Source of the DNA: Euglena gracilis
Taxonomy: Eukaryota
Direction: 5' to 3'
Assembly (NCBI GenBank): GCA_039621445.1
Contig: CP154954.1
Coordinates: 42,964,632-43,028,631, forward strand
Length of the DNA stretch: 64,000 nt
Shown here one piece after another: positions 3,589-52,500 of the stretch; within the stretch, counting starts at the first letter, position 1, and each line of letters begins with the position of its first letter. Position numbers and translations under genes: made by a program. The notes beneath the pieces were generated by a model, which saw nothing but the letters and a program-made list of their open reading frames with translations, was not told the DNA's origin and did not search any database.

Positions 3589-4012
<424 letters not shown>

Positions 4013-10727: not shown

Positions 10728-10758
<31 letters not shown>

Positions 10759-10915
10759 ATGTATGTATGTATGTATGTATGTATGTATGTATGTATGTAT
10801 GTATGTATGTATGTATGTATGTATGTATGTATGTATGTATGTATGTATGTATGTATGTATGTATGTATGTATGTATGTATGTATGTCTGTATGTCTGTAT
10901 GTCTGTCTGTATGTA

Positions 10916-10952
<37 letters not shown>

Positions 10953-11115
10953 ATGTATGTATGTATGTATGTATGTATGTATGTATGTATGTATGTATGT
11001 ATGTATGTATGTATGTATGTATGTATGTATGTATGTATGTATGTATGTATGTATGTATGTATGTATGTGTGTATGTATGCATGTATGTATGCATGTATGT
11101 ATGTATGTATGTATG
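10575..11115. repeat. (ATGT)n/(ATGG)n microsatellite
   Basis: Direct reading of the sequence. Confidence 0.97.
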
Positions 11116-29200: not shown

Positions 29201-32200
29201 GCGAAAAATTTTGGTGGGTTTTGCTTAGGAGGAAAATCATGTTTTCGAAAAGAATTGCCTTTGAAATCACGGGGACGAGAAATATGCAAACACAACAGGA
29301 ATGGTGGGGGAGAAGGGAACCTATTGGCAATGAACAGGTGGGAAGGGGCGAGGTCCGGACCTAACGATCTGCAACCGCATCTGCAGACATCCCTGTTCAT
29401 GTCCAGAACGAACATCGATGCGACCACAAAGAGCACAATCATCACAAGGAGGGAGAGCACCATAACCAGGCTTTTGCTTGTTGGATTTCAATCCCCCGTC
29501 TCACTCAGGGAAACCTGCCTGGCGGACCGGGGGGCTTCCACTGGAGGTCATCAGAATTAGGATCACCCCAATCCTTTTTAAATGTACTCCGTGCTGCCAG
29601 CGACTTTATTGGAAATGCATATTTTCAGATGCAGTGTGAAGTTCGGTATGTGTTGGGGAAAGATGAAGAGAGAGAAATTTTGGCGGCCCTGAACTACAGA
29701 CCCCAGTAATGTGGTGACCATCCTCCCATGTAAGTGAGTTCCCAAAGGATGCACAGTGCCCAAATATGTGTCACACTCTGAGCCTCCGAAAGTGATGTCC
29801 AAGGAAGTGCACACCCCCTGTAACAGCCATTTTGAATTGAACCAATCTCAGGTTATGCCCTAACAAGTGCCTGAATGGGAATCCCCGAAATCCTGTGGAT
29901 GGTGGGTGGGGTCCCCCCCCCATCCTTGTGGGTGGGGGAGTCCGACCCCCCCCCCCCCCGCCGGGCCTTCCTGTGGGTGGTGGGTTGGGGCCGACCACCT
30001 CCCCCCCATCCTGGTTGTTGGGTCCGATCACCAGTCCTTGCCGTGCACTTAAATGGGAGGGGGTAACGAGAGAGGTCCATTTTTTTTAGGGCAAGCTGAT
30101 GGAGGTATTGTCGGCTTGGTGTGTTCTCTTGTGTTTGAGTTAGATTAGGAATACGTTTAGGGCTTCAATTGTCGTCGAAGAAAGGGTCAGTGTCATGGTT
30201 TTCCGAAGTTTGGAGGTTAGGCCGAATTTGGGCCTGAACGTCGGTGTCAGTTATTCCTAATTTTTGGCCAAGTTGGGCTGGGCTAAAACTTCACACAAAC
30301 TCTATTCCGCATCCGAACCCTGACCCTATCCCTTTACCTGGGGGCAGGCTTTTACAGCCAACTACAGGAAGAGCGATACGCAGGCCTCTTCTTCAGGCCA
30401 AGGCCTCCCTTCTGTGTGAGTTTATTTCACCAAACCCCACACCTGGGAAGACAGGTTTGGTCCTCCCATGTTCCAAAAATACAACCACAAAGCATTAAAT
30501 AATAAACGCATAATGTGGTCATCTTCAACTTGCTGTGCTGCAAAAAGAAATGGGCCTGAACCTGAGCACAAGCACAAGGAAGGAGAGTGCCATGAAGAGC
30601 ACAAGCACAAGGAAGGAGAGTGCCATGAGGAGCACAAGAAGGGAGAGCATCATGACGACCAGGCTGTTTTATTTTATGCGTGCTAAGTTAAAACGTCAAA
30701 CGAAGGTGACGTGTATGTTGGAATCAATTGGACTCTTTTGGTGAGAAGGAAAGGGGTTCTCCCATCATCGTTTAGCACCATCTTTTTTGAAGAAAACACC
30801 ACAGTATCAGAATTTTCCCCCTTTTTGCCTGTTTCATTTGCCGTTTGTGCAATTCTTGAGTTGCATTTTTAATTTGTTTGTGTGCATATTACCCCTTCCT
30901 GTTCACCCGAGGGGAGAGGCTGGCTTCCTTTCCAAGGCTTCTTTTCTTTCTTCTTTTCAAGACTTCTTTTCATGTCCCCGGAAAACCCTTCCCATCCGGG
31001 GGGGGAGATAGGGGGGGGATTTATCCGGTCTGCAGACGAGCATATGGTATTGTCGTGGAGAGCCAAAAAGTTTTGCCCTCAGACAGCCCGATTTTGGAGG
31101 GGGCCGCGCTGGGCTGGGTTGGGGGGACCCCCGCCTCCGCCCCCCAGGGGGCTTAAAATGAAGCCTGGCTGGGGTCAAGTTGATACTGGTGGGGTTGAGG
31201 TGGGCGGTGCGCAGAGCTGCCTTTGGCCAGAAGTGCCGTAAGCCCGGGAAGGGATCATTTTCGGCCCATTTCTGGTTCCCGGTTGTGGGATTCCACCATC
31301 CGGCCACCCCGCCACAGCCTCCGGACCCAAAGTGGGGGCCCAATTGCCCGGGTGGGGACCCCAACCCTTCATTCCCACTGCCGGTTCCTCCGGGGTTGCG
31401 GCAAAGGGCCTGAGCGGGAGGACTGGCACCGGGAAGGCTGCCACGAGGAGCACAAGGAGGGGGAGCGCCATCATCAGGGCAAGCATGAGGAGTGCGAAGG
31501 TGGGGAGCACCGCAAGGAGCACAAGGAAGGGGAGTGCCATGACGCCGACAAGCGCAAGGAGGGCGAGCACCACGAGGAGAGACGGCGCCGCGACATGCAT
31601 CAGGGAGGCGAGTCGCAGCAGGTGCTGAAGGAAGGCCAGCGCCAGGACCACGGCGTCGCTTAAGCTGAAGTGGACCCCAGGGTTTGGGGGGGGGGGTCCA
31701 GCCAGCAGGCAGCCTTTTTTTCCGGCCCCAGAACACCCCCCGTCCTCATCGACGAGCAGCAAAATGAGCAATCGGTGAGCAATTTTTCGTATTTTGGGGT
31801 TCAGAAATGGCGGGGAAAACAAACGGGCAGAAATGGACGGAATTGGGCTGGTTAGGGCAAGTTTCGGGTGAAAAAATGGACTGTTTTTCAACGTGGAAGT
31901 GGGACAGTGCTCCGGGGCGGCAAATATGGGTCACCACTTCGGCAGCAACAGTGATTGCACTGGCACCCGCTGGAAGGCAGGAGGGAATAAGGCAAAACCA
32001 TCTCTTTTTGCGGGTATTTTTTTTTGCAGTTTCGTTTTGTGTACCCAATTTAATCCCCGCTTGGGCCCAGTTCCAGCCCAGGACCCCTGCAGGGGTGGGG
32101 GTCACCTAACAGCCTATCTCCAGCCTGCCCACATTCCCCTCGGCCACTGAGCTGTAAAGTGACGGCGTGGGCTGGATGAGAAGGGGAAGGAGGGAGCCCA

Positions 32201-35150
32201 TCACGAAGAGCACAAGGAAGGAGGGCAAAACGAAGAGCAAAAGGGAGGAGAGCGCCATGAAGACCACAAGGAAGGAGAGCGCCATGAAGACCACAAGGAA
32301 GGAGAGCGCCATGAAGAGCACAAGGAAGGAGAGCGCCACGAAGAGCACAAGGAAGGAGAGCGCCATGAAGAGCACAAGGAAGGAGAGCGCCACGAAGACC
32401 ACAAGGAAGGAGAGCGCCATGAAGAGCACAAGGAAGGAGAGCGCCATGAAGAGCACAAGGAAGGAGAGCGCTATGAAGACCACAAGGAAGGAGAGCGCCA
32501 TGAAGACCACAAGGAAGGAGAGCGCCATGAAGAGCACAAGGAAGGAGAGCGCCATGAAGACCACAAGGAAGGAGAGCGCCATGAAGAGCACAAGGAAGGA
32601 GAGCGCCATGAAGAGCACAAGGAAGGGGAGCACCATGAAGACCACAAGGAAGGAGAGTGCCATGAAGACCACAAGGAAGGAGAGCGCCATGAAGAGCACA
32701 AGGAAGGAGAGCGCCACGAAGAGCACAAGGAAGGAGAGCGCCATGAAGACCACAAGGAAGGAGAGCGTCACGAAGAGCACAAGGAAGGAGAGCGCCATGA
32801 AGAGCACAAGGAAGGAGAGCGCCACGAAGAGCACAAGGAAGGAGAGCGCTATGAAGACCACAAGGAAGGAGAGCGCCATGAAGAGCACAAGGAAGGGGAG
32901 CACCATGAAGACCACAAGGAAGGAGAGCGCCACGAAGACCACAAGGAAGGAGAGCGCCATGAAGAGCACAAGGAAGGAGAGCGCCACGAAGAGCACAAGG
33001 AAGGAGAGCGCCATGAAGACCACAAGGAAGGAGAGCGTCACGAAGAGCACAAGGAAGGAGAGCGCCATGAAGAGCACAAGGAAGGAGAGCGCCATGAAGA
33101 CCACAAGGAAGGAGAGCGCCATGAAGAGCACAAGGAAGGAGAGCGCCATGAAGAGCACAAGGAAGGGGAGCACCATGAAGACCACAAGGAAGGAGAGCGC
33201 CATGAAGAGCACAAGGAAGGAGAGCGCCATGAGGAGCACAAGGAAGGAGAGCGCCATGAAGACCACAAGGAAGGAGAGCGCCATGAAGAGCACAAGGAAG
33301 GAGAGCGCCATGAAGACCACAAGGAAGGAGAGCGCCAGGAAGAGCACAAGGAAGGAGAGCGCCATGAAGAGCACAAGGAAGGAGAGCGGCATGAAGAGCA
33401 CAAGGAAGGGGAGCACCATGAAGAACACAACTCCAAGGCAGGAGAGATTCATGAAAACCACAACCACAAGGAAGGAAAGCATCATGACGACCAGGCTTTT
33501 TTCTTTTTCAAAAGCAAGGTTCGGGGCGTGTTGATGCTTGACACGCCCCATTCTTGCCAGGAAAGGTTCTTCATGCTGGAGGTTTCTGTGTGGTCGAAAC
33601 AAATCCCCGAGATATATTACATTTACTTTGGCGTGTTTGTTTGAATGTGTCGTTGCAGTTTATTGTTTGGCAATTATGGTTTGCAGTGAGGTCCCAAAAA
33701 AGGGGGTTCCAATCATCCTTTTGTTTTTTTCAAAGAAAACACCCAGTGTCAGAGTTCTATTTCCTTTTTTGTTTTTGTTTATGCCGTTTTGAGCTGCATT
33801 TTAAATTTTTTTTTGCATGTGCATTATCTCCTCCTGGGGGTCCAGTCAGCCAGCAGCCATCCTCGGACCCCTCTGCCCCCCCCCTTATCGGTAAGTTTAT
33901 TTCTCAGCCGCATTCAGAGCAGGTTGATAATGGATATTTGGCAAAAATGGGCCAAAAATAGGCAAAAAAATGGGTCGGAAAAGGGTTGGCCCTGGCAGTT
34001 TTTGGGTCGCCTTTAACAAAAAGGGTGAATAATTTTTTTCCACCACACAGACACAACTCCTGGGCAACAGGGCGTTGCTCAACGGAAACTCTGGGCTGGC
34101 TGGAGATCCGTTGCCCCCCCCCCCCAATGGAAGTCGCAGGGCTGAAACTAGGTCCGAGCTGAGTAACATCATTTCTGTCAATTATTGATAGTTTTATCGC
34201 AGCTGGTTTTTCGATTTTGCTGCTGAGCTCCCCCTTTTTCCGTGTGCCAGCGATGCCCCACGAGTGCTCCCGAACCCATTGGCAATTTGTCGGCAATTGT
34301 CTCAAGGGTGCCGAATTTTTGACCTGAGAATTAAAGAAGTAGGAAACGGGATTTCACCACAGGGGACCACCGTTCCGGCGACCTGGCGGTTGGACCCCAC
34401 GCAGGGGGGACAAGATTTTTTTACATGGCACGTCTAGAAAACTTTCTTTTATCTGTTGCACCTTTTTGTCGTCGTTTCGGAACGGTTTTTTTTGGTTTTG
34501 CATTCATTGGTCGATTGGCGTTTGTTTTGATGTGTTTTTTGGGCGCCTGTGGGGCCCATTCCTTCCCTCCATGATTTACCCTCCGGGTCTGGGTCGGGGG
34601 TTTTCAGCCGGAGGGGACCCTACCCCCCAGGGGGGTCCAGCCAGCCAGCACCTCCCAGCCGGGCTGCAGACCCCCTCCCCCCGGGTGTCCGCTGGAATAA
34701 AGCTCGTGCCAGCCCCGCTTCGCCGGGCTGGACCGAAAATTTTTTCTTGAAGTGAGGGTCGAAAATGGCCAATAATGGCGGTTTTGGGCGGTTTTGGGGG
34801 TTTTACCTCAAACCTGTGGCTGAAAGAGCCAGCTGGATTTGGGCTTTTGGGGCTTTTTTGGGTACCCGCCTGGTCCAGCTCCCAGTCCGGGCGGACCCCC
34901 CTCCCCTGGACCCCCCTGGGGGGCGGGGGGTCCAGCCAGCACCTTTTCCCAGCCGGCCCGCGGGACCCCCCCCCAGAGGGTCTTTAAGAAAACCCCTGCT
35001 CTGGGTGCCGGGGACCAGAGCCTGGGCAGGAAGGCGACCAACGCAAGGAGCGCCAGGAAGGAGAACGCCACCATGAGTGCCGGAGCGAGGAGGGCAGGGA
35101 GGCCCGTGCGGCCCACAGGGAAGGCCCCGATGGCAACCGTCGTTGTGGTC
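22067..35150 (+). CDS. Putative secreted protein, Cys-rich N-terminal domain plus very long His/Glu/Lys-rich repeat tail (paralog B), multi-exon
   Basis: Signal-peptide-like MNAAWGILLWLISHAVWG at 22067. Exons ~22778-22922, ~23649-23705, ~27590-27645 (ACRVECAAV), ~29375-29463, 30564-30656, 31418-31645, 32175-33488 and 35030-~35147. The last five join in phase 0 using CAG/CAC at +4 and CTG/GTG at -8. End approximate. Confidence 0.75.
22954..23335. mobile_element. hAT-like MITE nested in an intron
   Basis: Perfect 17-bp TIRs CAGGCTTTTGCTTAAGG / CCTTAAGCAAAAGCCTG. Perfect 8-bp TSD GTCCTCGT at 22946-22953 and 23336-23343. Confidence 0.9.
24992..25245. repeat. 43-bp tandem repeat (~6 copies), each an internal hairpin
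   Basis: Unit GATCCTCCTCGAACGACCTCGAACGACATTCGAGGAGGATYTC. No unique spacers. Confidence 0.9.
25819..25970. repeat. 152-bp near-perfect palindrome (copy 1)
   Basis: Arms CTACAGGGTAC...CCCAAAGAGTCGCCCAACTAGGGTTAATACACATGGGGGGACCC and its reverse complement. Core GGCGCCGAAGGCGCC. Confidence 0.9.
26438..26589. repeat. 152-bp near-perfect palindrome (copy 2, inverted relative to copy 1)
   Basis: Asymmetric positions and core are the reverse complement of copy 1, while the flanks are direct repeats. Confidence 0.9.
27086..27298. repeat. 43-bp tandem repeat (~5 copies)
   Basis: Same unit as 24992-25245. Confidence 0.9.
32199..33420 (+). repeat. Coding 27-bp tandem repeat (~45 copies) encoding HE(E/D)HKEGER
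   Basis: Unit CAYGAAGASCACAAGGAAGGAGAGCGC. Most variation is at third positions of the HEEHKEGER frame, and flanking exons encode the same vocabulary. Confidence 0.9.
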
Positions 35151-38100
35151 AGGGCTTTGTTTCAGAGGAGTGGCATCGTTCACAGGTTCACATGCCAGTG
35201 GGTCATCATTGTCGGCCCGATCCATTGCATTTCAGTTTGGTTTCATGTTTCATATATGACCCCGAGGGCAGTGTCACACCTTGCCCTCTTCAAGGGCAAG
35301 GTTCGAATGGAAGGGTGCCCCACGAAGCCGGCACAAGGACGCTCCTCCCAGGCGCATGGAAATGGCATTTGCCAAACTGAGTAATGCGGTTGAGGGGTTT
35401 GTTCTCAATTGAGACATCCAATGTGGTCCCGGTGGAGCCACGCCACAATGGTCAGGGCCCCATGTGGGATAAATATCTCACTCAGGTTCAGAAAAATTTG
35501 ATTATTGAGAAACTAGCATTTGTGAATTGTCCACCTCTGATGAAAGCCGGCCCATTATTCTTTAGCATCCAAACGCTTCGCGGGACTCTTTACGATCAAT
35601 GATCAGCCGTAGTGAGGTCTGCCAGTCGCCTTTGCAAGAACCTTGCCCAGCTAGGTGCAGGCCCTACACCACAGGCTGCCAGGCCCCCATGCTGTCAGGC
35701 CAGACCGCGCCTGTTGCACCGCATGGCAGACTCACACAGCATTCACACGCGCAAAAAAGACACTTGCATGATTTGTGTTGGTATTTCATCGGGGAAATGG
35801 TCCCAGGACACAAAAGTGCTGTCTGCATAGGGGGGGGGGGGCATTTTTTCCTGGGAGGGGAAGACGTTGTTTGTCCCCACGGTCCGCAGTGTCGCATGGG
35901 CCCCCCGAAGCGTGGTCCCCCCCCCCCCCCGGCCATGACAAAGCCGCTGGCCGGGGCGACGCCGGCCCCGGGGAGGCGGTGCTTTCCGGTCCGGCGGCGT
36001 GGCCCGGCCAGTGGCCGCTGCCCCCGCTGCTGGCAGAGGCACTGCGGGCCCGGGCGTCCTCCCGCCCTCCCACCTGTGGGGTGGGGGGCCTCGGTGGGAC
36101 TGTGGACCGGTGCATGGCGGGGGGGGGGTGGACCTCCCAATTAGGTTGTGGTTCGGTGGGGCTCTCACCCCGCAGGCCGGGTTGTGCAGCAGCAGACCCC
36201 CCCCCACCCCCATCCTGGTGGTAGGGGGGGGGGGGGGTATGGCAGGCTTTCCCGTATTTCCAGGGGCGCCGATTTACAGGTCAAAATACTCCTTCAATGC
36301 CGAAGGAATTTTCTTTGTGCGGATGCCATGGTGGGTAGGGGGGGGGGTCGACCCACCCCTCCCACCTCCCTGGTGGGGCGTCCCCCCCCTCCACCAGACC
36401 TCCCCGCTCAGCCCTTGGATTGCTGTGCGAGGTGGGTCTCTTCCCCCCCCCTCACAGACAGGCCAAGGCGGGAGGGCTGCGTTGGCCGCCACCCTTGATC
36501 CTCCCCTCCGGCGGCTGTGGCTGCGGGATGGGGCACCGCGTTGCCCGAGCCCCGCACTGTGCGCCCCCGACCATCTCGACGATGAATGGCTTGGCCCGCC
36601 GCCGCCTCACGGTATCCCTCCTTCTCCCCCCCCGCCCCCTCCCATGTTTTTCCGCGTGCAAATTTCCTTTAACACCGAGGGAATTTCTGCAAAGAGGGAA
36701 AAAACACACAAGGTGGCCTGTGGCTCGGTGCTCACCAGCCGGTTTGTTTGGCTGTTTCACTGCCCCCTCTCTACGCTTGAAATCAAATTCCCAGAGACAC
36801 ATACCAATGCTGCCGGTGTGTCCGACCCCCCAAACAGCTGACTGGTTTTTGGCTCCAGACCACCGTTTCAACATCTGTGTGAAACACCACATCCTCCCCG
36901 GAGTGTGGGGTGTACGCCAGGAGTCAAGTTTTGACGCGGCCGGCTAACGGCTAAATTTTTTTCAAGGGTTTCCGGTGGAGTTTGTGTGGGTTTTGGGTTT
37001 GGTGGGTGGCTGGTTGACCCTCCCGGGGAAAGGGAGCAGGCTTGTGCTTAGTCGGGTGCCTACCCCACGGGGGGGGGGGGTGCTAGGGGCAGGCACTCCT
37101 TAGCACCCGATCCGACCCCCCCCCTGGGGGGGGTAGGGTTTTGGGGGGTGCCTGCCCATAGCAGGCACTGCTATGGGTTGCCGGTCGGTGGCTGTTTAAC
37201 TTGGAAGACCCCAGGGGGGGGGGAGGCTGAATGCGGGGAGGGGGGAATTGCCTGCCCCCCAGTAGCACCAATCCCCAGGGTTGGGTGGGAAGCTCCGCAG
37301 ACATGAGGTAGGTGGTAGGGGGGGCCCCCTCCGAGATTCCCATGCCAGCCGGCCCATCCCCACCCCCACCCCCACCCCCCGCCCGGAACGGCCCTCTCTG
37401 GCCCCCTCCTCTCGCCCCTGAGAGGGCGGCGGCCCCCCCGGCCCCCGGCGTGCCCCGGGGCCAACCCCGCCCCACCCCCGTGTGCACTGCGCCGCCCTCC
37501 CCCGCCCCTCCCCCTAAGGCTTAGGCGGCGCGAATTGCCCAAATTTTATGCCATTTTTTAGGCGGTCCAAGTGTGCGGGTTTCCGTGTAGGCCACCCCAC
37601 CGAAACTCAACTGATATTTCTGACAGTTAATACAACCCAGGAATTGTATGCGGGTTTCCGCCTGTTTCCACTGTTTTGACACGTGACCCATTTTGGAAAT
37701 TAATGGTGAAAAAGGGGTGGTTCTGTGAAATACCCCCCAGAAACCTGGCCGAAAATGTGAAAATGGAGAAGGGGTGGGAGAACACCTGGCCATTGGAGTC
37801 CCGGCCGTGTCACGACGGAGCCGGACCCCACCTCCGGGAGGGGGGTGACATGGGGGAACCTGTGAGGGAGAGGCACCCGCGTAAGCAACCCGTGCACTTT
37901 TTGAGGACTGGTGAGTGCCGACGAGCAGTGACGGGAGGGGGAAACGAATACCACTGCGGAACTGACTCTGTAATTTTTGACAGATGAGGTGTTGAGCGGG
38001 AAACCGCGCAGAACAGTTGAACGATCTGAAAGAGATTAACATTTCAAGAGGGCGCTGAATGACCAAGGCAGGGTAAAAGTGAACTTGTGCGGTTATCCGT

Positions 38101-38899
38101 GCAAAAACACACTGGGAAACCCCTGGGGACGTTGGACTGTAAACTGGACGTGACATCCAATGGGGCACCTGACCCAAGGCAGCCCTCTTCCCATGCCCCC
38201 TCCCCCTCACCGCCCGCCTGCCAGAGACTGCGATAGCACACGAAGCGCAACGACAGAAAGAAGGGTGGGAGGGGGAGGGTGTGTGTGCGGATAACCGTGC
38301 AGCTTGGTCCCGGTCCTGGAGGGGTCCTTGGTCCTGGGGGGAAGAGAGCGAGACGAAGTCTCTGTGGGCGGTCCAGAGGGGAAGAGAGAGAGACACACGG
38401 AGGGGACGAACGGACAGCCGAATGGGTGGTCCAGGTCCAGGGCACACGAGATGTGGTCTCAGAGAGGGGTGTGCGTCAGAGAGGCATCTCACACTCCATA
38501 CACTGCACTCGCAAAAGGGTTGGTTGGGCGCATTGAATGGGAGACCAGGAATGTGTGCCCTGGACCTCACACAGCGGTTTGGGGCGTCCGGTGGGTCCCA
38601 GGTGGAAAAAGGGTACGATGGAGTGGTCCAGGGGTTGGGTTCCTGTCGAAAGGTGAAAGGCGTTTGGGCAGTCCCGGGGGCAGTGGGTGTGCGGTGAGGG
38701 TGTGTGACACACGAAAAACCAAAGCAGCGGGCGGTCCCAGGTTCAAAAGTATCGGGCGGTCCATACAGGAGGGGCAGAGGGAGCTGCTCCGACGGCTGCC
38801 CACGGCCGTCCACGGCCGTGCACTCGGTGGGGATGGCGGCTGCCTGCCGCCCCGCCGCGCCCGGCCCGCCCGCCCGGCCCGCCCGGCCCGCGCTGCTGC

Positions 38900-41800
38900 T
38901 CACACGTTGAGCAGCTCCTCCAGCGCGCCGGCCGGCGTGGGCTTCTTCTTCAGCTGACCCTCCCCCCTTGGACTTGATGGATTGGAGGAGGGAGGAGGGG
39001 TGTACGCGTGCAGTGAATGAGTCAGCAAGCCGTGCGCGGTTTCCTGTGAACATCACTGACGAACATAGGGTCCTAGATTCGTCCAGAGTTTGTAAGGACA
39101 CAGGCACTGTGCATGCAAAACCTCCTGAACCCAAAAAGAGCATAGGAGATTGTGTGCGGGTTTCCGTGCAGCGCAGAAGAAGACGCACGTGTGCGGTTTC
39201 CCGCGTGCCAAGCCGTGGCTGCAAAACCCAGGGGCTGAAGGAGCACATTGATAGGACGCACTGAAGGTGCACATTGATAGGACACACGCTGAAGGGGGGA
39301 CCGTGTTGGGGGCGGTCGCGGCACGATCTCCTCAATCTCGTCCTCCGGTTCACCGGCGGCGGACTCGGTGGGCGGCGGGGTGCGGGCCGTGCGCTTGCGG
39401 CCCGTCACCGGGGTCTCCGGCGCCGGCTGCTCCTGCGCCGCTGCTGGCGGTGCGGCCGCGCCCTTCCGCAGCCCGGAGGGGGTGGAGGCCCCCTTGCGGC
39501 CCGCCGCCGCCGCGCCGCCGCTGGCCGACGGCTGCTTGGCCGGCGTCACCGGGGCCTCAGCCTCCTTCGCGGCAGGGGCCCTCTCCTTCCCCTTCTCCTT
39601 CCCCTTGGCGGCCGGGGGGGCCTTCTCCTTCTCCTTCTCCTTCCCCTTGGCGGGGGTCTCCTTCTTGCCCCGCCCCTTGGCTGGCGGCGGGGGCGAGGGC
39701 TCCCGGCCCTCCTTCTCCGGCTCCTTCCTCTTCGGCCGGGGGGGCATGTCCTCCTCTTCCTTCTCCCCCTTCTCCTCCTCCTCCTCCAGCCCGCCCCGGC
39801 CGGAGACGTCCAGGGGCTCATGGTGGGTGATGCGGTGGTGGACGTTGATGGCCACAGGGGCCACCACCCGGGTGGGGTGGGTCATAGCAACAGGCATAGC
39901 AACAGCCAGTCATAGAAACAGCCAAGCACACCGCTCCACGGGAATCCGCACGCGTGCACTGTCCGCGGGAAACCGCGTGCACGCTGTGCATCACGTTCCG
40001 ATGCTGTACTAACGGCTCATGCATGCAGAGTCGATACGGGCAAACGTTCCCCCCCCCCCTCGTCTGGCCTGCACTGAGGTGGCGCCCTGATCCCACAGGA
40101 TGGCCGGCTTCCCGTCGGCCACTTTGATCTCGCGCTGCAGCTGGTCCACCCGCAGCTGCATCGCCTCGTCCGCCTCCTCCAGGAGGTCGGGGTCCCCCCA
40201 GATGACGCCGATGGGGACCTGCAGCCGGGTGGCGAGGTCCGCCGGGAGGGCGGCGTGGCGGGTGACCGCCAGCACCCAGTTGTGGGCCTCCACGTGCAGC
40301 CGCAGCAGCCACCACGCCACCTCCACCGGCAGGGTGGGCGGCCCCTCCCCCGCAGAGCTGTGTCTCACTTTCAGGCGGGAGGGATGAGGAGTGCGGGTCG
40401 AAAAGGGAATTGGCCAAAAGGAATTCACCCTGTGGAACTGAACGTCGTTCTTTCAGCAGAGGAAAGGGAAGAACCACGAGAAGTGCACGGAAAACCGTTT
40501 AAATTGTAAAATTGTACCTGGACTGACAATCATTTTGATGAACAGAATTGTACCAATACCTATAAACTGACCAAGGATGTTGACTGTGACGTTGCTTTTT
40601 TGTTTGTTCGGTGTGAACAAAGCCCTGACCCTGTCCCACGAGGGTGATCTGCCGCGGCACCTGCGGGGGACGATGAAGGTGTGTCAACACCTCACGGCAG
40701 TGGAACATTGATCTTCTGAGTCACAGCATGGATCTTAAGAAACATTCGTGTGCACGGAGAGTATCCCGTGTGCGCAGGTGTGTGTATCAGTCCTGTGCGG
40801 ATTCCCGTGCACTCCACAAAGTTGTGCGGATTCCCGTGTCCCCCCAAAAAAGAGAACGTTCTGTTGGTTTAAAAAAAAGAAAAAACGAAACGAAGGGTGT
40901 GCACACCCGAAAGTCCGTCTTGCTGCTGAAGAGGGCGGTGACGGTGGTGATGTTGAAGAGGTAGGTGCGGTCCACGTTGGACTTCACCGGCCGGTGCAGG
41001 GTGACGTCCACACGACGCATCTCGTCGGGGACGTCCATGCCCTTCTGCAGCGTCTGCTGCAGGGCCCCGATGGCGAACGCCCGCCCCGTGGCCACGAACG
41101 GGACCCCGCGGCTCCACAGTCTCAGGAGCTCAGGGTGGACGTCGGCGTCGCTCAGCCCGTCCGGGACCTCCACCACCACCGCGTCGACGTTCAGCTCCAT
41201 GATCTCCCGCGGCATCCCCGCGGTGGGGTGGAGGGGGACCACGTGCGCCAGGCGGGACGGCTCGGGACTCTCCCCACGCTCCGCCGCTTCCGCCCTTCTT
41301 CGCCCCCGGGTGGACCGGCTGCCCGCCCGCGGAGAGCCAGCCTCAAACAGCTCCCCCTCCCCAGACGTGGGCTGACTGGGGGACCCCTCCGCCTCCTCCC
41401 GGCTGCTGCCGGCCGCCGCTGTGGCCGCCCCGCGCCGACCGCCGCCACCGCTGAGGTCCAGGGTGCAGAAGCGGCCCCCGTACCGCACCGTGGGCTCGGC
41501 GAGCGGCTGGGCCAGCCGCGCAGCAGGGGAGCGTCAGCGCTCAGGGGGGGGGAGGAGTCCCGCGGTGGCCGGGGTCAGGACACACAAGAATCCTGAGGGA
41601 CACACAAAACGAACGAACAGGACCACAAAACTTGTGATATTTCGGGTTGTGTAAAAAAAATTAAAACAAGGTAAAAAAAAAGTGCACACACACGTCCTAG
41701 TTCCTGCGCACGGGGGCTGCGCCAGCGCCAGTTGGTACCGGAACCGCGCTGTCCATGCTTGCCAGGCTGGGCCACCAGGGTACCTGAGCACGAGAACGGT

Positions 41801-43790
41801 GAGAACATCAGCAAAAAAGACATCACTACGCACTTCCATGTACAAGCGTCTTTCCACGGAAACCCGCCTAAAAAGAAAAAAAAAGTGCGGAAGACAAACG
41901 CAGAGTAGACATACGGCGGGTGACGGGTGGACGTGGTGTGTCGTGCACGTCCACGGCACCCGCGGCGGCGGATCAGCGTCCCCACCACCGCTTCCATGAC
42001 GCCTTTCCACGGCCCCCGGCACAGTCCACCCAGCGCGCATTGTGTGGTGTGCGTGGTCCGGTCAGCGTACTGTCTCTGTATCCACGACAGTAAACTGTCC
42101 CCCGTATGATCACACACCTTGTGGTGTGCGGGCGTACTGTCTCTGTCCACTCGAACAGTAAAACTGGCAAGTGAGATCACAGCGCCTCTGTCAAAGTGCG
42201 GGCACAGTCCCCGTCGCCTGAAATGGACATCCGAACCGCCGCACCGTCGTCGCCTTCGCCGCCTCGTCCAGCATCTCCCTCGTCAGGGCGACGTAGTCCT
42301 GCGGGTCGTACAGCTGCTCGATCGCCTTGAACGCGTACGGGGACAGCGCCGCCGCCACCCCCGTCGTGGGGCGCGCCTCCAGCGCCCGCACCGCCTCCAC
42401 CACCGGCCGCCCGCTGTGCAGCAGCCACTCCGCCAGCGGCTGCATCGACTTCACCCAGTTGTCCTGCACAGAGGAGGTCAGGGAGAGTTGAGGGGGGGGG
42501 GGCAACAGGGGGGGGGATTGAGTGATGTGTACGTGATAGCTGGAATATCAAAGGACAGGGTGCGCGCACTCACTCTCCCTCTGAGGAGCAAAAAGAAAGG
42601 AAGCAGGCCATCTCGGCGGGAATCCGTGCATTGCATCAAATAGAGAACAGCGCACACGGAAATCCGCGCACACACCATCTTGCCGTGGGACGCCTCCGTG
42701 CACCCCGTCTTCACGTACACCCGCTTCAGCAGCAGCTCCGTCCGGTTCACCGTCAGGCGGGCGGCGGTCCCCGCCTCGCCGTCCGGCACCGCCCCCGGCC
42801 GCTCCCGCTCCACCTCCCGCTCCAGCCACTCCACCCGCTGGCTGAGGGACATCTCCCTCACCGTCCCGTCCCGGGCTTGCATGCTCCCCGCCACGCGCTG
42901 CCTCTCCTCGAGGCTGGCCGACCCCAGCACCGTGTGGCAGTTGAACCACTCGGTCCACTGCGGCGCCGGCCGCGCGTCGGCCACCGCCGCGTCCGCCACC
43001 TGGGTGGCCGCCAGGAAGCGGTGCTGCCCGCTCAGGATGACGAACTTCCCCGTCGCTGTGACAACAGGGAGGTCAACAGTGCCACTGAGTGTTGTTCAGG
43101 TGCACGGATTCCCGCCTGGATCACCACCCCAAATCAAAAAAAAACCAGTACAAACGGTGTACATTTCATTATTCCGTCATTTGGGAAGCATCCGCCGCCA
43201 TTTACAACATCCATGAATACAGACAGGCTGGCCTACTATGCTGATAGAAACAAAACACACCCTGCTCCGGCCACACCACGAAGCTCAAGGCCCCCACCGG
43301 CGGGTTCTCCGTGAACGCCTTGACGAGGCTGTCCACGTGGGCCTTTTCGACCCGCCGCACCTGCCCTCGCGTGAGGGTCTCGTCCAGCACCAACACGTCA
43401 AGGCGCGGAGGCTGTCTGGCTCTCCAGGGTTTCAGCTGAAAGTTCTGAACGGACAACTGCACAGGATGTCTGATGCACGCGCACGCCAAACACAAATCTG
43501 AGCGGTTTGCACGGAAACCCGCACAGCTGTAGAAACCAAAGGACGTCAATGACACTGAAACAAACTGGGTGAGTGTCATCCAAAAAATGGAGTGACTTCT
43601 CCCGTACTTTCCAAAACATCCCAGGAATGAGGAACCGTCAAACACCCTCGGACGATTGTACGACAAAAAAAAGGAGAGAACCACACAAGCCAGCTCCAGA
43701 CCCCCTCCGGACACGGGCCAGCGGGGTCGGGGTCTTCGACACCAGCTCCGTCGCCGAGCGAGTGGGCGCCGTGGGCTTCCGGGCTGCCAT
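38900..43790 (-). CDS. ParB/Srx-like domain protein, probably fused to a degenerate beta-class DNA methyltransferase-like domain and a K/E-rich tail, multi-exon
   Basis: ATG at 43790. GT-AG introns join 43435-43261 (GQVRRVEKAHVDSLVKAFTENPP...VVWPEQ), 43055-42676 (ATGKFVILSGQHRFLAA...) and 42463-42245. Later exons ~41530-40910 (NVDAVVVEVPDG), ~40355-40065 (PTLPVEVAWWLLRLH...VL...RL...I..DP) and ~39880-39290 (K/E/A-rich). Putative stop at 38900. Downstream joins are not all resolved, so this could be more than one gene. Confidence 0.65.
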
Positions 43791-43841
43791 CAGAGGTCTA
43801 AAAAAACGAGGCAGCGTGAAAACAGCAGAAATAAAGGAAAT

Positions 43842-46800
43842 TCAGGTCAGAAACAGTCCCCACGCAAACACTTTTGTGAATATAAATAAGCAGAAATATG
43901 GGATAGTCAGTTCAATCAAAAAAATAATTGTCATTAAACGAAACACAGCAGTGACCACTCCGCAGAGCACCCCCCTTTTGGCTGGGTGGAGAATGCTTTT
44001 GCACGGAAACCCGCCCGCCACCCCCGTCATGAAACAAACCCTCACCCTCGCTCTGAAGGCCTCCAGCTGACTCCCTGATATACAGAGAGGTTCAGGACCA
44101 CATACAAAGACAGGGGTCCGGTAGGGACACACCGCCGCTGGGGACAGACTGAGGTCCTCATCCGAGGAGGAGGACCCAGACGACGTCGGGCGGCTGCTCA
44201 GCAGCTCCCCCAGACTGCCGAGGCCATCTGAGGCCGCCGGGGAGACGTACCCCTCGGACAGCGTGCCCGGCGGCTCGTACAGCGACTCCGCTGTACTGGG
44301 CGGCTCGTACAGGCTCTCCGCCTCGGGCAGCTCCAGCGCCGGCCATCCCGGTTGAACCGCAGGCGGCTGCACCACCGCCGCCACGGCCGCGGAGGAACTG
44401 GGCTCCTCCGGGGTGAACCGGACGCGGCCCTCCGCCGGGGACTCCTCGGCAGGCCTCATCACCTCCGGCGGCGCAGGTTCCGCTCCTGCACGGGTTTCCG
44501 CACGGGCCACCGCCTCTGCGCGGGTTTCCGCTTGCCCGCTGGTCGCCAGTTCGACGTCCCCCGGGGGCGTGGGGCTGCGGCGCCGCCGCTGCCGCTGGTG
44601 GAGGAAGTTGTCCATCGCCCGCTGGCGACGGGCGAACTCCTGGGGGTCCACCGGCCCGACGTTCTCCCGCATCCAGACCAGGATGTCGGGGGTCAGGGCC
44701 CGGCCGCTCACCAGGGTCAGGAGGGAGGTCCGCATCAGGGCCTCCAGCGCCCGGACGTCCACGATCTCCGGCAGGATGGGCGGGGACCCCCACCGGGGGA
44801 ACTCCACCTCGGCGGCGTCCACCCAGGCGACCCGCGTGGCGTCCACCCGGCGGGGGAAGGGGCGGCCCTCGGGGTGGTCCGCCAGCTGGCGCACCCGGCG
44901 GGTCATCTCGGCGACCAGCCCCAGCCGCAGGGAACCCCGGCTGGCGTGCGGCGCCCCCGACGGCGGCGGCAGGCCGAGGAACAGCTGCAGGGTGCCCCGG
45001 AAGTCCGTGACGTACGGCGACCGACGGCAGGCACCCGACAGGCGCGACAGCATCGCCTCGCCGGCCTCCTCCACGAAGACGCACCCGGGCAGGCGGGACA
45101 TCCACGGCTGCCAGGTCAGCAGGGCCAGGGAGATGGTCCGCATGTACTCCGAGGGGAGGCCATGCGGACTCATGGCCCGCTCGAGGTGGGCCTGCAGGAC
45201 CAGGCAGCGCTCCAGCACCTGCCGCGCCGTCTCCCCCTTCACCTCGTCGTCGGGGCGGCCGCGCCAGGTGCACTGCCGCACCTTGAAGCCGAGGTGGAGG
45301 AGCGCCGGCAGGAAGAAGGTGAGGAGGCGGTGCAGCCCCAGGAGCAGCTGCGGACCGTACGCGTCAGCCGCAGTGGGGGCGGAGACGTGCACGCGCTGGC
45401 TCTCCTCCCGGAGACGATCCTCCAGGTGGCGTCAGAGTGACAGATGGGCTCTCGAAGTGTCTTCACCCACCAGAGGAACAGAGAGGCTGACAAGCTGGCC
45501 TACGTAACCTATCACCAGGGTCCTTTACGCGGGTTTCCGCACAAAGCGGACAGACTGTGACGGACAGATGGGAGAGATGTGACACCGACTAACATACGAC
45601 ATGACTGTGCGGATAACCGCATAAACATTGGCCTGATGTACCAGGTGCAGCCTGAAAGCAGCCAGCTTGGGCAGTGGTCACCCTGGCTGGGGCAGCACGT
45701 CGGCCCGGGTCAACAGGAGGCTGGCGAACAGCTTCTCCATGTACAGCACCTTCCGGTGCGACCGCAGGGACGTCGTCAGCTGCCGGCTGCCCCCGGCGCC
45801 AACCGGCACCTCCAGGTGGGCCAGCACCGGGAAGAACGCCCGGTACACCACCGTCACCGTGTGCTTGTAGGCATGCCAGATGCCGTACAGCAGGGGGACG
45901 TTGGCGAGGTGCTCCCCCATCCGGAAGCGCAGCGCCGGGGCCGAGTAGAGGAGGCGGAGGATGCGGTAGTGGATGTTCTCATCCACCAGGAGGGGCAGCT
46001 GGCGGCCCGACCGCGCCTGCAGCTGCAGCACGGTCTCCAGGAGCTGGAGGAGGTCCCGGTTCGAGCTCACCGTCTGCTCGGTCAGGGAGAAGGGCCTCCA
46101 CCGCAGCGACCGCATCGCGTCCCGCTGCATGTCCAGCGGGACGCGGACGTTGTCCACTGAGAGCTCCGCCCGGTGGAGGCCGCGGACCGCCTGGTGCAGC
46201 TTCTTCGCCGACTGCAGGCACAGGTCGGCCGCCCAGCGGAGGTGCTGCACCACCGTCCCGAACTCCGGGTGGCCCGTGGACACGGGGAACGTCACGGACC
46301 GCGTCAAAGTCCCCTGACGAGTCCGCAGGGGGTCGATCTGCAGCAGTCACCACACAGAGGGCCTGCTCACTGAGCCAACCAGGTACGTGTACGCATACAC
46401 AACCCTGAAGTGTGCGGGTTTCCGTACAAACCAACACTGATTACACGGAAACCCGCACAAACGCGTCTGACAACCACCTTTGTACTTAACCCTGTACACA
46501 CCTTGGGGGATGTTGAGCTTTGTTTTCACCAGTGTCACCGTTCACCTGTCCCTTGTCACCAACTGTGTCACCCCGACTTGTGGGGTTCTTGAGCAGTTCA
46601 TTCATTCAGTGCATTTTAGACAGACCATTCCCAGGCGGAAAACCGCGCACGTCTTGTCATGCACGGATGGTCATCGTCAGGCCCACTTCGCCAACAGCAG
46701 AAGGCAGAGTAGGCACCCTGAACCCAGGGCGGTGACGTTGCGGCTGTAGCTGGGCTGGGTGGGGTCCGTGCCCCACCGCAGCCAGCAGAAGTTGTCCAGC

Positions 46801-47300
46801 CACAGCACGCACTGGTGGCCGTCCAACGCCCGCAGCACCGCGTCCCGGGCCCTTCGCGCCCGCTCCCGCACCAGCTCCTCCGTGGGGCCCACCAGACCGG
46901 CGGGCCGCAGCAGTCGACGGGTAGCGCGTGGCAGGTCCTGCAGCGTCTGCTGCGCCGGGGCGGGGGCCAGGGCGGCCGCCGGCGTGACCAGCTCGCCGAA
47001 GGGCACGGCCAGCCGTCGCAGCGTCCGCCACAGCGCCAGCAGCCCGTCGGTGAAGCGGGCCATCCACATCGGCCGCTCGGACGGGGGCCGGGTGTACTCC
47101 CGCCGCACCTCCCGCAGGCTGCGACGGGACCGGCGGTTGGCCCTGACGGCCAGGCCTGTCTCCACCAGGTTGAGGGCTCCCAGGTGGCCTCTTCGGAGGG
47201 CGTCGTCCAGGATCGCCCAACCATCCGCCGGGGGGGCGCCGGCAAGGTACCCCCGCAGCTGGTCCAGCTGCAACACCAGCGTCTCAGATGAGGCGGCCAT
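43842..47300 (-). CDS. Putative DDE-type transposase (Academ/DUF6589-like motif order), three exons
   Basis: ATG at 47300. Exons ~47300-46724, ~46348-45689 and 45427-(stop at 43842 unless spliced). Motifs in order: CVLWLDNF (~46793), PLLVDENIHY (~45980), PLLYGIWHAYKH (~45875), EYMRT (~45143), VEEAGEAMLSRL (~45060). Lies inside a TIR/TSD-bounded element. Confidence 0.62.
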
Positions 47301-47775
47301 TTTTTTTTTTGCACAGTCTGAGACAACGGAGAAGAGAGTGTGCGGATTACCGCGCAGCAGAGGGTGCGTGAGTGAGTCAGGGACACAATGTAGACACATC
47401 TGCTGTACATGCTGAACATTGTTTTCAGTGAATGGACAAAGATCACTCACGTATGTACAGTTTCAACCGTGTTGTCACCCGCGTGTGGGCAGTGAAGCAG
47501 TGTCGTATCGTCGTGCCGACAAGGGCTCAGTCCTTTACACGGGAATCCGCACAACACTGCGCTGTGTTTGATTCAAATCTGTCATCGTAGCACACTGTGT
47601 TGTACCACACACCGCAGCCATTGTGGACCGCTTCTACGCGGGTTTCCGCACAGCTGGTGGGAACATCGCAATGACCTGTTCTTCCTTCACTATTACCTCC
47701 CTCACCGTTGAAATGTTTGCGCTTGATTCTGTGCTGTTGTGCGGGTTCCCGTGTAAAGCCATGGAAGGCTGCTGT

Positions 47776-49535
47776 TCAGGGTTTCTCAAATTTGAAGCCG
47801 GCGGGGGCAACAGTACCCGGATCGGTCCGTACGGCGCAATTCAGAGCGCGATTCCAGGTAAGACGGCCCTCCAAAACCGAAGGACCTGGGACCTTGTCGC
47901 GATTCAGGGTGTTTAGTGGTACAAGCGGATGTTGAAATTCTCGCGATTTGTACCCCCTCGCGAACGGGATGTGCCACTGCGACGTAACCCCTGGGAAAAC
48001 ACCGTGGTCTGGGGGCCGAAGTCGTTGTTTGTGCGGTTTCCCGCACAAACCGCAGCTCCACGTCGTAGAAGGTGGCCTGTTTTGGGTGATGTCAAGGGAG
48101 CAGCAGTTCACCCTACGGATGTGTCTCGCGAACGACACAGGAACCGTAAACCAGTCGTGTACCACCCACCACCACCACCCTCAGTCGCGAAAGAGTCCCA
48201 GGTAGTCGTGTCCGGGGGAGGTCTACAGCACGCAATCGTGCGGCCCAGTTGGGCGTGTGCACTGAGTCCCCTCAGTGGCCTAGACCAACCCCCCCGGGGG
48301 TATACCGAACTGCTGTCAGCTTCCGCTTCGTTCAGCCTCCCTCCTCCGCACCAACCACAGAAGAGAAGAAAAGAGACCCTACACACACAAAAGAGACACA
48401 CGTCGTGTATACATACACGCAGCCCGAGCGGATACCCGTACACGGACTCGTCCGTAAGGAAAAAGTAGGCAAGTGACCGCACCGGCCGGGGAACCAGTGG
48501 CGTTGCCCACTGGGGTGGGCGGTCCCAGGGAGCTCGGCCACAAGAGGCCGTTACAGCCACTTGCCCAACATCTCTCTCCAGAGATCGCACATGGACTGTA
48601 TAACATTCGCGAAACCACTGTTGGTGGTCAAGCCGGCGGTTACACCAAATGAAGGCCTCGCGATCCAGATCCAGAAGCGTAGGAGGGAGAAGGGGCGGAC
48701 ATCTGTGCAGTGCACTGGGCCTCACGCCTTACGCGCTGGTCCGTTCTTGTACGCGGAAACCCGCACACATCGTCGCCGTTGGCGTGTGACCACACCACAC
48801 AGACTCTGTCACCCTCGCCAGACCTCCACGCACACAACTGACCGGTGGCCTACGCATTCCGATCGCGAGGAAAACCGGTCCCCTACGCAGTGGTGTACCA
48901 CCAAACGTCCAAAACGTGAAACACAAACACCCAGGTTCCATTTTCCTACCCAGTCGGTCGGGGGAGTCCGGGACGGGCGTCGTCGCCCCAGCTGCGTTGG
49001 TCCGCAAACGCCGCAACCGCACCCCCGTTGGGGAGGTCTGGGCAACCTGCCCCGGCGGTGCGGAGAGGTCAAAGGACCACCCGGGCTCCTCACTATTCTT
49101 TTTATACACTTGGAATGTGTTACACGGATTCCCGCACAAGACATCCCGTTGGCTTTTCCATACTTCATGGGCTGCTCTACATCTGTTTGGAAACCCTCAC
49201 ACCCCTCTACGGACGACCACACTGCGTCGAGTTTCGCAACCAGTCAGCACCGCAGTCGCGGAAACACCGGTGTTCCCACCGTTTACGTGCCGTTTCGTTC
49301 TTGTTCAGGCCGGGGAGTTACACAGGCAGGCTCGCCGGGGAGAGGACCGCCCCCTCTTACAGGGGGATGGGGCAGCCAACTGTTGGCCCACCACCACACA
49401 CCCGGCGGACACACCACCGTCACCGGCCGCGGCTGGGCCACCGTCCCGGTGACGGTTAGGGCACACGGGATGTGTCGGGGTGTGGTGCGACAGACAGGAC
49501 GCTGCCCCCCGGTCCACCCTGGCCTCCCCACCATT
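47776..49535 (-). CDS. Possible third transposon gene of unknown function (fragmented into exons)
   Basis: Protein-like segments EAFIWCNRRLDHQQWFRECYTVHV...RSLAYFFLTDESVYGYPLGLR (~48700-48420), EPGWSFDLS (~49080) and WSCGLCGKPH (~48045). Joins not resolved. Confidence 0.35.
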
Positions 49536-52500
49536 TTTCGTTTGCACTTCAAGTAAACGCATCTGTCCTCTCGCGTAGTCTGGCCCACACACCCACCACA
49601 ACGTTCTGCGGTGTTGTGCGGATTCCCGCCCAACACCAAATGCCTTCGTTCTGTCCTTCACAGGTTACACGGGTTACCGCCTGGACGTCATAAATACAAC
49701 TACGCTCTCTTTACGCGGTAATCCGCCTAAACCACACTTCACAGTTTTCCTTCACATCACACCAAACACACAACACCCCCCTGTATCACACATCGTTGTG
49801 TTTGTTGTGTGCGGTAATCCGCACACACTCGTGTTGTTCACCTCACCTCACACGCTGTGTGACAACAGACGTACCACCAATATACACCCACATTGTACAC
49901 GTGTTACAATACCGTGCTTTTCTGGTACCTGTAACAGGGGTCTCATCACCACTGTTTTTACGTACCTCTGCGTCGTGTACTGTACGATGCGCGGAATACC
50001 GCACAAAACCACTTTCATAAAATCTTGTCCCAAAGCTGCCACGTAACCCTTGTAACTCAAAATTTTGTTCCTTTTTCGCTGTTTTTAAAACAGCCAAAAA
50101 ACACCAAAAAACGCAAAAATGGCGTGGGCAATTCGCGCCGCCTAAGTAAGGGGAGGGCGGGGGCCGCTGAGGAGTATGGCCGCCGCCCGGCATGGCCGGC
50201 CGGCGGCCCCCGCACCGCATCGCTTCGGCCGGCGGCCCCACTGGGGCCTGATGGGGGGGGGGGGGGGGGGGCGGGGGACGGGAGCGGCCGGGCAAGCAAC
50301 CCCGCTGATCTGGCACGCAGTGGGGGGGGGGACGGGTAGGTTCTCCCTTTCCCCTCTCATGAAGCTGTCCACCCCAGGGAGGATTGAGGGTTAGGGGGCA
50401 ATTTAAGGGTTTGCAGTACTCCCCCAGGAGCTGGCTTGCAGCAAGTTTTAATTTGGTGGGTGGAAATCCTGGTGGACCCTTCCCCCCAGGGGGGGCAGCT
50501 AGCAGGGTTATCTAGTGGAAATTATTTCTAAGTGGCTGGAGCAAAGCGCAGGAAAGGTTTGTTCCCCCCCAAACACACCAAAAAAGTTTATTCTGGCAAT
50601 TTTTTGGATTTTTTTTTGTGAAAATCAGCATTATAACCCAATTTCCCCCTCGCCACGCGGGGAACGTACGCAAGCCTCCCCGCCAAAGTTTTGTTTTTGC
50701 CCTCTGTCTGCCCAGGCTGACCCTGGCGGGGTGGTGTAAGGACGGCCCCCATCTTCAAACCTTCGAATTAATTCGAGCAAGCCCTCCCGGAGGACTCTTC
50801 AACGACAGCCGTCTCGAGGTGGGGCGGTGCAGGCAGGCCGCCGGGTCGGTCCGGTCTTTCTCCGCCGCCCCCTGCACATCGCCGTCATTCTGTCAAAGCA
50901 CAACGCGCTCGGCCCTGGCTTCGCCTGTGTTGGCATGTGTTGCCCCTTTCACAAAGCTGTCCACCCCCTCACGCCGCCTGGTTGGGGGGCCGGGCTTCTC
51001 CTTAAGGGTTCGCAGTGCGCTCCCCTGGGCTCGATTGCAGCTTGTCCAAATAGGCTTGTGCAAATCCTGGTTGCCCCTCCAGCAGAAATGTGTTCGACGT
51101 CTGCTTTCTTGGGCATGTGCGCATTCGCCGACGTTTGCCTCGTGCCACAAAGCGCTGCCTGCCACAGTGGGGATTTGGGGTGCCCATCACCGAGGAATTT
51201 CGCCGGGCACTGAAGTCCCTCTCTCAGCCGTTTTCCCACGGTGTGACACAGTGGAATGAACAGCAGTAGAACGGAGAAAATTCCTGGGTTCGGCTAATTC
51301 AGGTAATGCTTTTTTGTGATGTGCCTGTGCCTGACTCACGGTCTCAAGGGGCCGGAGAAATTTTGGGGCAGGGACTGACCAATGGTTTTCATTTCTTTGA
51401 ACCCATTTGGATCATGAAATAATACCACGTTTATGAACCGCTTTTTTGGCTGTGGTGCCAAAGGTGCCGACAGGTGTGTTTCGCAGTCCAGGTTCCAACG
51501 CACTGAACAGCGTGTGGGTAATCAGACACGATCCCCAGCGTTAACCCTGGTCGTGGGGCACAGTGCTCCTGGCACCGTGCACCGCAGCCCAGTGTGAGGT
51601 TGTTCAGAGGATGGTTGGCTGTGTGTTGCTGTGCACGCCCTGGGGCTTGGGGTTGGACAACACTGGCATGGATTCACCCATCACCTCCGCAGGGTGGGGG
51701 ACGGTGTGCATGTGCGTTGTGATGTGCTCCGCTCTACAGGTTTATGAGAGCAGCACCAGGGCTGGGCACTGGACAGCGGTGGGTGACCCGGAATGCGCAG
51801 ATGCGCATTCTGATTTATCCGATGATTTGAGCTGCAGGGGATGGTCTCCTGTTACTCTGTTACTGAAAGGACGTGAATGTGTTTGTGGCGCCTGCCATCG
51901 CCGAGCCCACGGTTTTCCACGCCGCTGCAGGTGTCGGGTTTCATCGTGTGGCCAGGCACAGCGACACTCCTGCCAAGGATGACTCTCCTGGTTCACCTCC
52001 TTTCAGACCCCCATGTCCTGCACGACCAAGGCCATATCCCAGTCGTGCACACATTGGATCCAAGACAGGCAAACAACGGTGTGTTCCAGTGTGTCTTTCA
52101 ACATCAATGCTTGGGGGTGCATTCCCGCTTCCCACAGCTTGTGTCCATTCCAAAAATGCGCACCTGCGCATTTTCTTGGGGTTCCAAAACGGTGCATGTG
52201 CGCATTTTCCGGGCTTGGGACTCTGTTGCAGTCCTGTTGTTCCGCCCCTGGGAGGGCTGTGTCTCCATGGCCGCAGGAAGTTCCTTCCCACGCTCACCCC
52301 CAGGTCTCCAGGCCCTGCCACTGGGAACCATCAGCACGCACCAGTGAAGACACAGTGATAAATCTACGTCGGGGTTGGCCTGCGTCGCCCATGTTCCACA
52401 TGCCATGTGGAGCGTGCCACGTGTTTGTCCAGCCACGCACTATGCTACAGTCATCGCGAACAGCTGCAAATGGGATGACACGCAGCAAAACCAGAAATGA

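Follow-up and report, generated by a model that had tools for sequence, protein, structure and literature searches.

Phage ParB-CTPase folds frequently occur as fusions to N6_N4 methyltransferase domains, and the survey that describes these fusions presents a repertoire of ParB folds charted so far mainly from bacteria, archaea and phages (PMC12704722). ParB-like proteins have also been described as activators of phage thymidine dioxygenases (PMC13229309). Among eukaryotes, adenine methylases have been traced to phage ParB-terminase loci, with one clade expanded in haptophytes, and a methylase family of chlorophytes and chytrids carries an N-terminal ParB-type HTH (Iyer, Zhang and Aravind 2016; PMC4738411). 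The last of these studies, in its account of ParB-linked adenine methylases, supplies a precedent for the entry of phage ParB-linked methylases into algae. Given such precedents (PMC12704722; PMC4738411), it was reasonable to propose as a hypothesis, as was done from the letters of the present locus, that a ParB-like protein of Euglena gracilis carries a catalytically dead methyltransferase of the beta class. The locus lies in a stretch of 64,000 nucleotides (‘the window’), and the putative methylase would be encoded largely by two of its exons, here termed ‘exon A’ and ‘exon B’.

Comparison with the described systems places the exon A family apart from all of them. The eukaryotic ParB-linked adenine methylases, at least as PMC4738411 presents them, are recognisable and motif-bearing, whereas the exon A family is neither. 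The same separation holds for the beta-class enzymes (M.MboIIA, M.RsrI, M1.HpyAVI, CcrM and YhdJ), whether these stand alone or are fused to ParB in phages: the family has no DPPY-type motif, no FxGxG motif and no match to a methylase profile. For the non-permuted class I methyltransferases (CbiT, TrmI/TRMT61 and RumA/RlmCD), residues 113-222 of the structural model of one relative (P0005) match only the last 100-130 residues of the enzymes, and the parts of the window’s own model that align to their strands 1-3 have a pLDDT below 50. A further comparison is with the Alba superfamily and the kin that share its fold (Alba/Sso10b, Mja10b, Pop6/Pop7, Rpp20/Rpp25, SpoVS, the C-terminal domain of IF3, and SepF), from which the exon A domain differs by the absence of any sequence or profile likeness; by an extra conserved N-terminal strand (GLIHV), to which the relatives add an extension of about 55 residues; by a conserved His/Glu/His set where Alba has its basic loop; and by its place within a very long protein encoded by many exons.

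Exons and splicing of the ParB-like gene

The gene occupies the minus strand of GC-rich eukaryotic DNA and is divided into many exons by short introns. Its structure was traced with contigs from three public runs (X1, X2 and X3, tentatively taken to be of RNA) that were placed on positions 38500-48000; a raw-read RNA run (X23) yielded only 12 reads over the same interval, with no joints. The features on which the argument depends are the following.

39073-39849, minus strand: tail exon (INVHHRITHHEPLDV..., then a Lys/Glu/Pro/Ala-rich tail), within the ORF 39073-39909; joint 39849 to 40093 in three runs
40093-40346, minus strand: exon B (E-GPPTLPVEVAWW...KPAILW), which continues the frame of the mini exon; joints 40346 to 40630 and 39849 to 40093
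40171-40338, minus strand: PTLPVEVAWW...DPDLLEEA, within exon B, the peptide previously aligned to the beta-class C-terminal consensus
40630-40660, minus strand: 31-base mini exon, coding for VPRQITLVGQ with one base left over and separating exon A from exon B
40907-41521, minus strand: exon A, 205 codons, with an N-terminal part of low complexity followed by a conserved alpha/beta domain (approximately residues 95-205 of the 210-residue query); joints 41521 to 41722 and 40657 (+3) to 40904 (+3) in run contigs
41156-41191, minus strand: NVDAVVVEVPDG, within exon A, the peptide previously aligned to ‘motif IV’ and then placed at about 41158-41192
41722-41741, minus strand: GTNWRW microexon; joints 41521 to 41722 and 41741 to 41962 in X2
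41962-41991, minus strand: 30-base microexon that separates the helical exon from the GTNWRW microexon; joints 41741 to 41962 and 41991 to 42238 in X2
42238-42462, minus strand: helical exon (MQPLAEWLLHSGRPVVEAV...), C-terminal to the ParB-like core; contig joints; columns 1-100 of alignment A1
42675-43055, minus strand: ParB-like core exon with ILSGQHRF; joints with GT..AG ends
43261-43398, minus strand: exon upstream of the ParB-like core (...LVLDETLTRGQVRRVEKAHVDSL...); joints 43055 to 43261 and 43398 to 43712

The exons of the ParB-like region, exon A, the mini exon and exon B are co-spliced, as read from joined contigs. Exon A ends at 40907 (...KTDFR, phase 0), and the 246-base intron that follows it (40661-40906) is skipped in X1, X2 and X3; once the cut is shifted by 3 bases, its gene-strand ends read GT..AG. 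The 283-base intron between 40630 and 40346 is skipped in contigs of X2 only, where a GAG codon carries the mini exon into exon B in frame, and it is retained in one contig of X3 (record 17). Exon B, ending ...AILW at 40093, is joined to 39849 in X1, X2 and X3, and the frame continues into INVHHRITHHEPLDV. In the upstream direction, an 899-base contig of X2 (record 10) holds the mini exon, exon A and 255 bases beyond it, reaching into the upstream microexons, and the upstream joints pass through both microexons to the exons at 42238-42462, 42675-43055 and 43261-43398, which are those that had been assigned to ParB in the original prediction. The linkage of the ParB-like and methylase-like exons that it assumed is supported by the joined contigs. 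The two peptides on which its methylase assignment was built (NVDAVVVEVPDG and PTLPVEV...LLEEA) are likewise present on the minus strand, and both lie in exons; the second had been placed on the ‘next exon’, however, and the mini exon intervenes, so that exon B is the next but one.

The window and the contigs diverge by 1-5%, including in-frame 3-base indels at 40302 and 42727, a pattern that fits a match to a coding allele or a paralogue. At 41429, 42266, 42821 and 43399, contigs of two to three runs depart from the window, with up to 255 unlike letters beyond the point of departure; these shared points suggest paralogous copies, or alternative joins, of the gene in the organism. The minus-strand intron 39850-40092, which lies where exon B is joined to the tail exon in three runs, has GA..CC rather than GT..AG ends, and several of the upstream joints also lack canonical ends. 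Such ends may reflect non-canonical splicing, or alternatively alignment offsets against diverged copies. The tail exon itself is of low complexity, rich in Lys, Glu, Pro and Ala, with KGKEKEKEK and GRGKK-like stretches, and it resembles the tail of a chromatin protein.

The ParB identity of the exon at 42675-43055, judged from its sequence, is a lead only. The exon has no match in Pfam, in NCBIfam or among PDB sequences, and no relatives were found among proteins of 69-221 residues; its neighbours in ESM feature space, at 0.90-0.92, include ParB_N (19% of one cluster) and clusters of DUF6551. Its ILSGQHRF string is reminiscent of the DGQHR/DGQQR motifs of DndB and DUF262, members of the ParB superfamily. 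A pairing of DUF3723 with ParB was not found in the literature searched. Farther upstream, three minus-strand ORFs (43842-45431, 45678-46346 and 46677-47462) are covered by contigs of the X1-X3 runs and have no Pfam, NCBIfam or PDB match; strings within them (LWLDNF, LLVDENIH, WHAYKH and FVEEAGE) are reminiscent, by eye, of a DDE-type transposase.

The exon A domain and its relatives

Exon A encodes a conserved, real domain. A HMMER search of 1.84 billion representative proteins recovered 14 relatives, with E-values from 5.5e-16 to 2.3e-4, all of which are short, ORF-like fragments. A common feature of their ends is informative: in 13 of the 14 a [FYWM][RK]V triplet stands at the position of the exon A boundary and similarity stops there, and in the window the Val codon at that boundary is supplied by the first bases of the intron, GTG. 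The triplet and the loss of likeness after it agree with a common phase-0 intron starting with GTN, and the relatives are probably intron-bearing genes that an ORF caller has read through, with an intron at the equivalent place. In two of them (P0010 and P0014) a counterpart of the helical exon at 42238-42462 lies upstream of the domain in a single ORF, so that the linkage between the two is conserved, and the GTNWRW of the window’s microexon matches GTRWRW/GTKWAW in the N-terminal extension of the relatives (alignment A1).

The consensus of the family reads GLIHV...P..L..L.Y.AV..E....GVH....RL...GVP.L..G...V....Q.L....D...HRP....YLF....FKV. Its most constant positions include His97 (13/13), Glu122 (12/13) and His133 (11/13), together with Gly150, which is kept in all 14 sequences that cover it, and Pro182 and Tyr191, each kept in 14 of 15. 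The exceptions among the first three are a replacement of His133 by Asn in two relatives and of Glu122 by Gln in one.

The domain is unannotated and named in no library. Exon A has no match in Pfam (at E-values up to 10) or NCBIfam; the family profile reaches a best E-value of only 0.21 among PDB sequences, with a PDZ domain; and the top score of exon A in the ESM Atlas (0.82) is at background level. No longer relatives were found with the alignment A1 query among proteins of 798-2275 residues, a single-protein scan of metagenome contigs returned no related loci, and neither did scans of viral contigs with alignments A5 and A3. One candidate locus from the A5 scan (L012) was dropped, since only 28 residues matched, the DNA was of 70% GC and no other part of the family was present. 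A ComEC beta-lactamase-like match that arose when exon A was compared with the PDB by phmmer (E-values 0.036 and 0.075) was dismissed as chance, the family profile having failed to reproduce it. The literature matches listed include no description of the exon A family.

Methylase likeness and predicted fold

The proposed relationship to N6A/N4C DNA methyltransferases was examined against 11 genuine enzymes of the beta class, YhdJ of E. coli together with ten phage methylases recovered with it; DPPY-type and FxGSG-type motifs are present in each. At the sequence level the likeness is no better than chance. When the profile of the 11 enzymes was run against the core as spliced in silico (hmmsearch, with filters off), it scored -3.1 bits, a value equalled by 28% of 2000 shuffles, and exon B received no score. 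The sole local match of that profile on the spliced core sets EIMELNVDAVVVEVP on the motif IV strand; this is the alignment that had been noticed by eye in the original prediction, and judged on its letters it is statistically weightless. Smith-Waterman z-values against the 11 enzymes lie between -1.7 and 2.6 for exon B, and between -1.6 and 2.0 for the core of exon A. In hhalign comparisons with the same set P is 0.18-0.29 for the exon A family, and 0.058 for exon B, over an unrelated helix of 15 columns. Pfam, searched to E-values of 10 with N6_N4_Mtase (PF01555) included, gave no match for exon A, exon B or the 15 family members. The resemblance to the C-terminal consensus of the beta class, like that to motif IV, thus does not rise above chance, and neither exon is tied by any sequence or profile method to N6_N4_Mtase, the family in which both had been placed.

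The catalytic motifs tell the same story. That DPPY and FxGxG are lost in the window, as was originally observed, is correct, and in the sequences collected here the degeneracy is family-wide. Motif IV ([DNS]PP[YFW]) occurs in none of the 13 sequences that cover its column and nowhere else in any of the 15, the site reading V-x-x-E-[VAL] instead; motif I (FxGxG) is missing from all three exon B sequences (the window, P0015 and P0016), where the site reads VLAVTRHAALP. A look for homologues that retain DPPY and FxGxG had been suggested, and no such ‘intact’ relative, which would show methylase descent, was found among the 14.

Exon B, which in that scheme would have supplied the SAM-binding half, offers little to compare. 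Only two close relatives were found, P0015 (source jgi; 100%) and P0016 (source lgn; about 80%), and no Pfam family matches at E-values up to 10. Its hydrophobic runs, inspected by eye, would be compatible with a helix-strand-helix-strand-helix pattern. Prediction of a complex between exon A (residues 86-209) and exon B, run without alignments, gave an ipSAE of 0.00 twice and a partner pLDDT below 50, values that count neither for nor against a joint fold. Neither structure nor profile supports a SAM-binding role for exon B.

Structural modelling is more informative for exon A. An AlphaFold2 model built from a 15-row alignment has a core with pLDDT values of 75-93 (residues 101-160), preceded by 90 disordered residues. 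Its elements are, in order, a strand (96-100), a short helix, a strand (118-122), a helix, a strand (146-150), a helix, and a long hairpin (171-182 and 193-204), so that NVDAVVVEVPDG forms the strand 118-122 and ends at the nearly invariant Glu122. A second AlphaFold2 model, of the relative P0005 (29% identical), has the same core with a mean pLDDT of 70.8 and a moderately confident N-terminal extension. In both, the conserved residues His97, Glu122, His133, Gly150, Pro182 and Tyr191 are found at strand ends or helix starts. The arrangement by which Alba and IF3-C folds are recognised, a two-layer beta-alpha-beta-alpha-beta-beta unit of about 85-90 residues, is found in the model.

Comparison of these models with known structures returned matches of two kinds, all with E-values that are weak. 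For the window model, Foldseek searches of the PDB are led by class I SAM methyltransferases (CbiT at 8.5e-4, followed by TrmI), with Alba chains interspersed and the beta-class enzyme M1.HpyAVI at rank 31 (2.4e-2). For the P0005 model, Alba-type chains are mixed with CbiT and TrmI at a best E-value of 5.8e-3, and in a viral structure library fragments of methylases are again mixed with SpoVS at 5e-3 or worse. When the P0005 model was superposed with VIA-align, the N-terminal halves of beta-class enzymes aligned over approximately 103 residues, and Alba-type folds, compared with that match, gave higher Z-values for the core and covered the whole domain. As modelled, the fold of the exon A core is therefore ambiguous, between an Alba-like unit and the alpha/beta half of a methylase.

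Candidate roles of the domain and other features of the window

We tentatively favour, at somewhat less than even confidence, a reading in which exon A is a non-catalytic, Alba-like module for nucleic-acid binding within a large ParB-like protein. Exon A would then encode a lineage-restricted alpha/beta domain with a beta-alpha-beta-alpha-beta-beta core of the Alba/IF3-C type, in a long, spliced and expressed protein whose ParB-like region (SGQHR) and helical exon come before the domain and whose exon B and Lys/Glu-rich tail come after it. We infer that the domain holds DNA or RNA, acting alongside the ParB-like part and the charged tail; the contact surface would probably be formed by the long beta hairpin together with the loops into which the parallel strands run at their C-terminal ends, and the domain would neither bind SAM nor methylate. 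The agreement of two independent AlphaFold2 models (window and P0005) on the core speaks for such a module, as do the conservation of the domain, the in-frame joining of its exons, the absence of methylase motifs from every member and the tail rich in Lys, Glu, Pro and Ala. Against it, no sequence method ties the family to Alba (Pfam Alba, E-values up to 10, 15 members), the Foldseek E-values are weak and the best of them belongs to a CbiT methyltransferase, and the His97, Glu122 and His133 side chains at the strand ends of the models recall a ligand or metal site rather than the lysines of Alba.

Those same residues might instead mark a new kind of enzyme, such as a hydrolase or a nucleic-acid processing activity, in which they would form a metal or substrate site. 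Their high conservation and their placement at strand ends or helix starts are what such a site would predict; no known hydrolase stands out among the fold matches, however, and the replacements by Asn at position 133 and by Gln at position 122 count against it; we give this idea a slim chance. A descent from methylases is unlikely, if less remote. According to that explanation, exon A together with the mini exon and exon B is what remains of a beta-class N6A/N4C DNA methyltransferase that once belonged to a phage-type ParB-methylase fusion, lost DPPY and FxGxG and was retained as a DNA-binding or base-flipping module. It draws on the order of ParB-like region and domain, which parallels the phage ParB-CTPase-N6_N4 methyltransferase fusions as described in PMC12704722; on the superposition of the P0005 model with beta-class N-terminal halves; on the dominance of class I methyltransferases in the Foldseek lists; on the position of EIMELNVDAVVVEVP in the 11-enzyme profile; and on the pattern of helices and strands discerned by eye in exon B. 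It is opposed by sequence tests that are uniformly at chance, by the loss of motifs IV and I from every member that covers them, by the better and more complete match of the core to Alba-type folds, and by the finding of only two close relatives of exon B. What stands of the dead-methylase proposal is thus the co-splicing of the exons and their order relative to the ParB-like region; the methylase identity, and exon B as its SAM half, do not find support.

Two further possibilities are each improbable. The domain might be a module for self-association or protein-protein contact, dimerising in the manner of SepF or docking a peptide, with no contact to nucleic acid; its structural matches are no stronger than those of the other readings, no partner is known, and both the ParB-like region and the charged tail point to nucleic acid, so we consider it a poor prospect. 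About as far from likely is a combined history, in which the phage ParB-methylase architecture was kept and the methylase remodelled past recognition, its half-fold becoming an Alba-like unit with a His-Glu-His site that serves as a new DNA-acting reader or enzyme, perhaps tied to the intronic CGG-N4-CCG elements described below. The members of such a family are so far only intron-interrupted ORF fragments of eukaryotic type.

If the Alba-like module that we favour does bind nucleic acid beside a ParB-like module, it would add a eukaryotic, lineage-specific architecture to the ParB-fold repertoire, and would provide a point of entry to a family as yet unnamed in any library. Should the domain prove to be methylase-derived, it would illustrate how far the decay of a DNA-modifying enzyme towards a binding module can go. 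The present use of these results is in the annotation of the genome of Euglena gracilis and its relatives, and they will not surprise specialists.

The CGG-N4-CCG element occurs 66 times in the window, as compared with 28.8 expected occurrences, and none of 100 shuffles reached that number. The interval 37576-50001 holds 53 of the 66, mostly in introns of the ParB-like gene region. Many of these elements take the form CGG[GA][AT][AT][ATC]CCG and lie inside longer, GTGCGGATTCCCGTGCAC-like intronic elements; an alignment of nine introns indicated that they are not copies of one element.

Elsewhere in the window, a plus-strand ORF at 62126-62689 appears by eye to be part of an exon for a papain-family cysteine protease. 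Long simple repeats occupy 3371-4368, 10255-11308 and 32053-33659, where they generate pseudo-ORFs on both strands that are rich in His/Thr, in Ile/His/Thr/Tyr, in Leu or in Glu/His.
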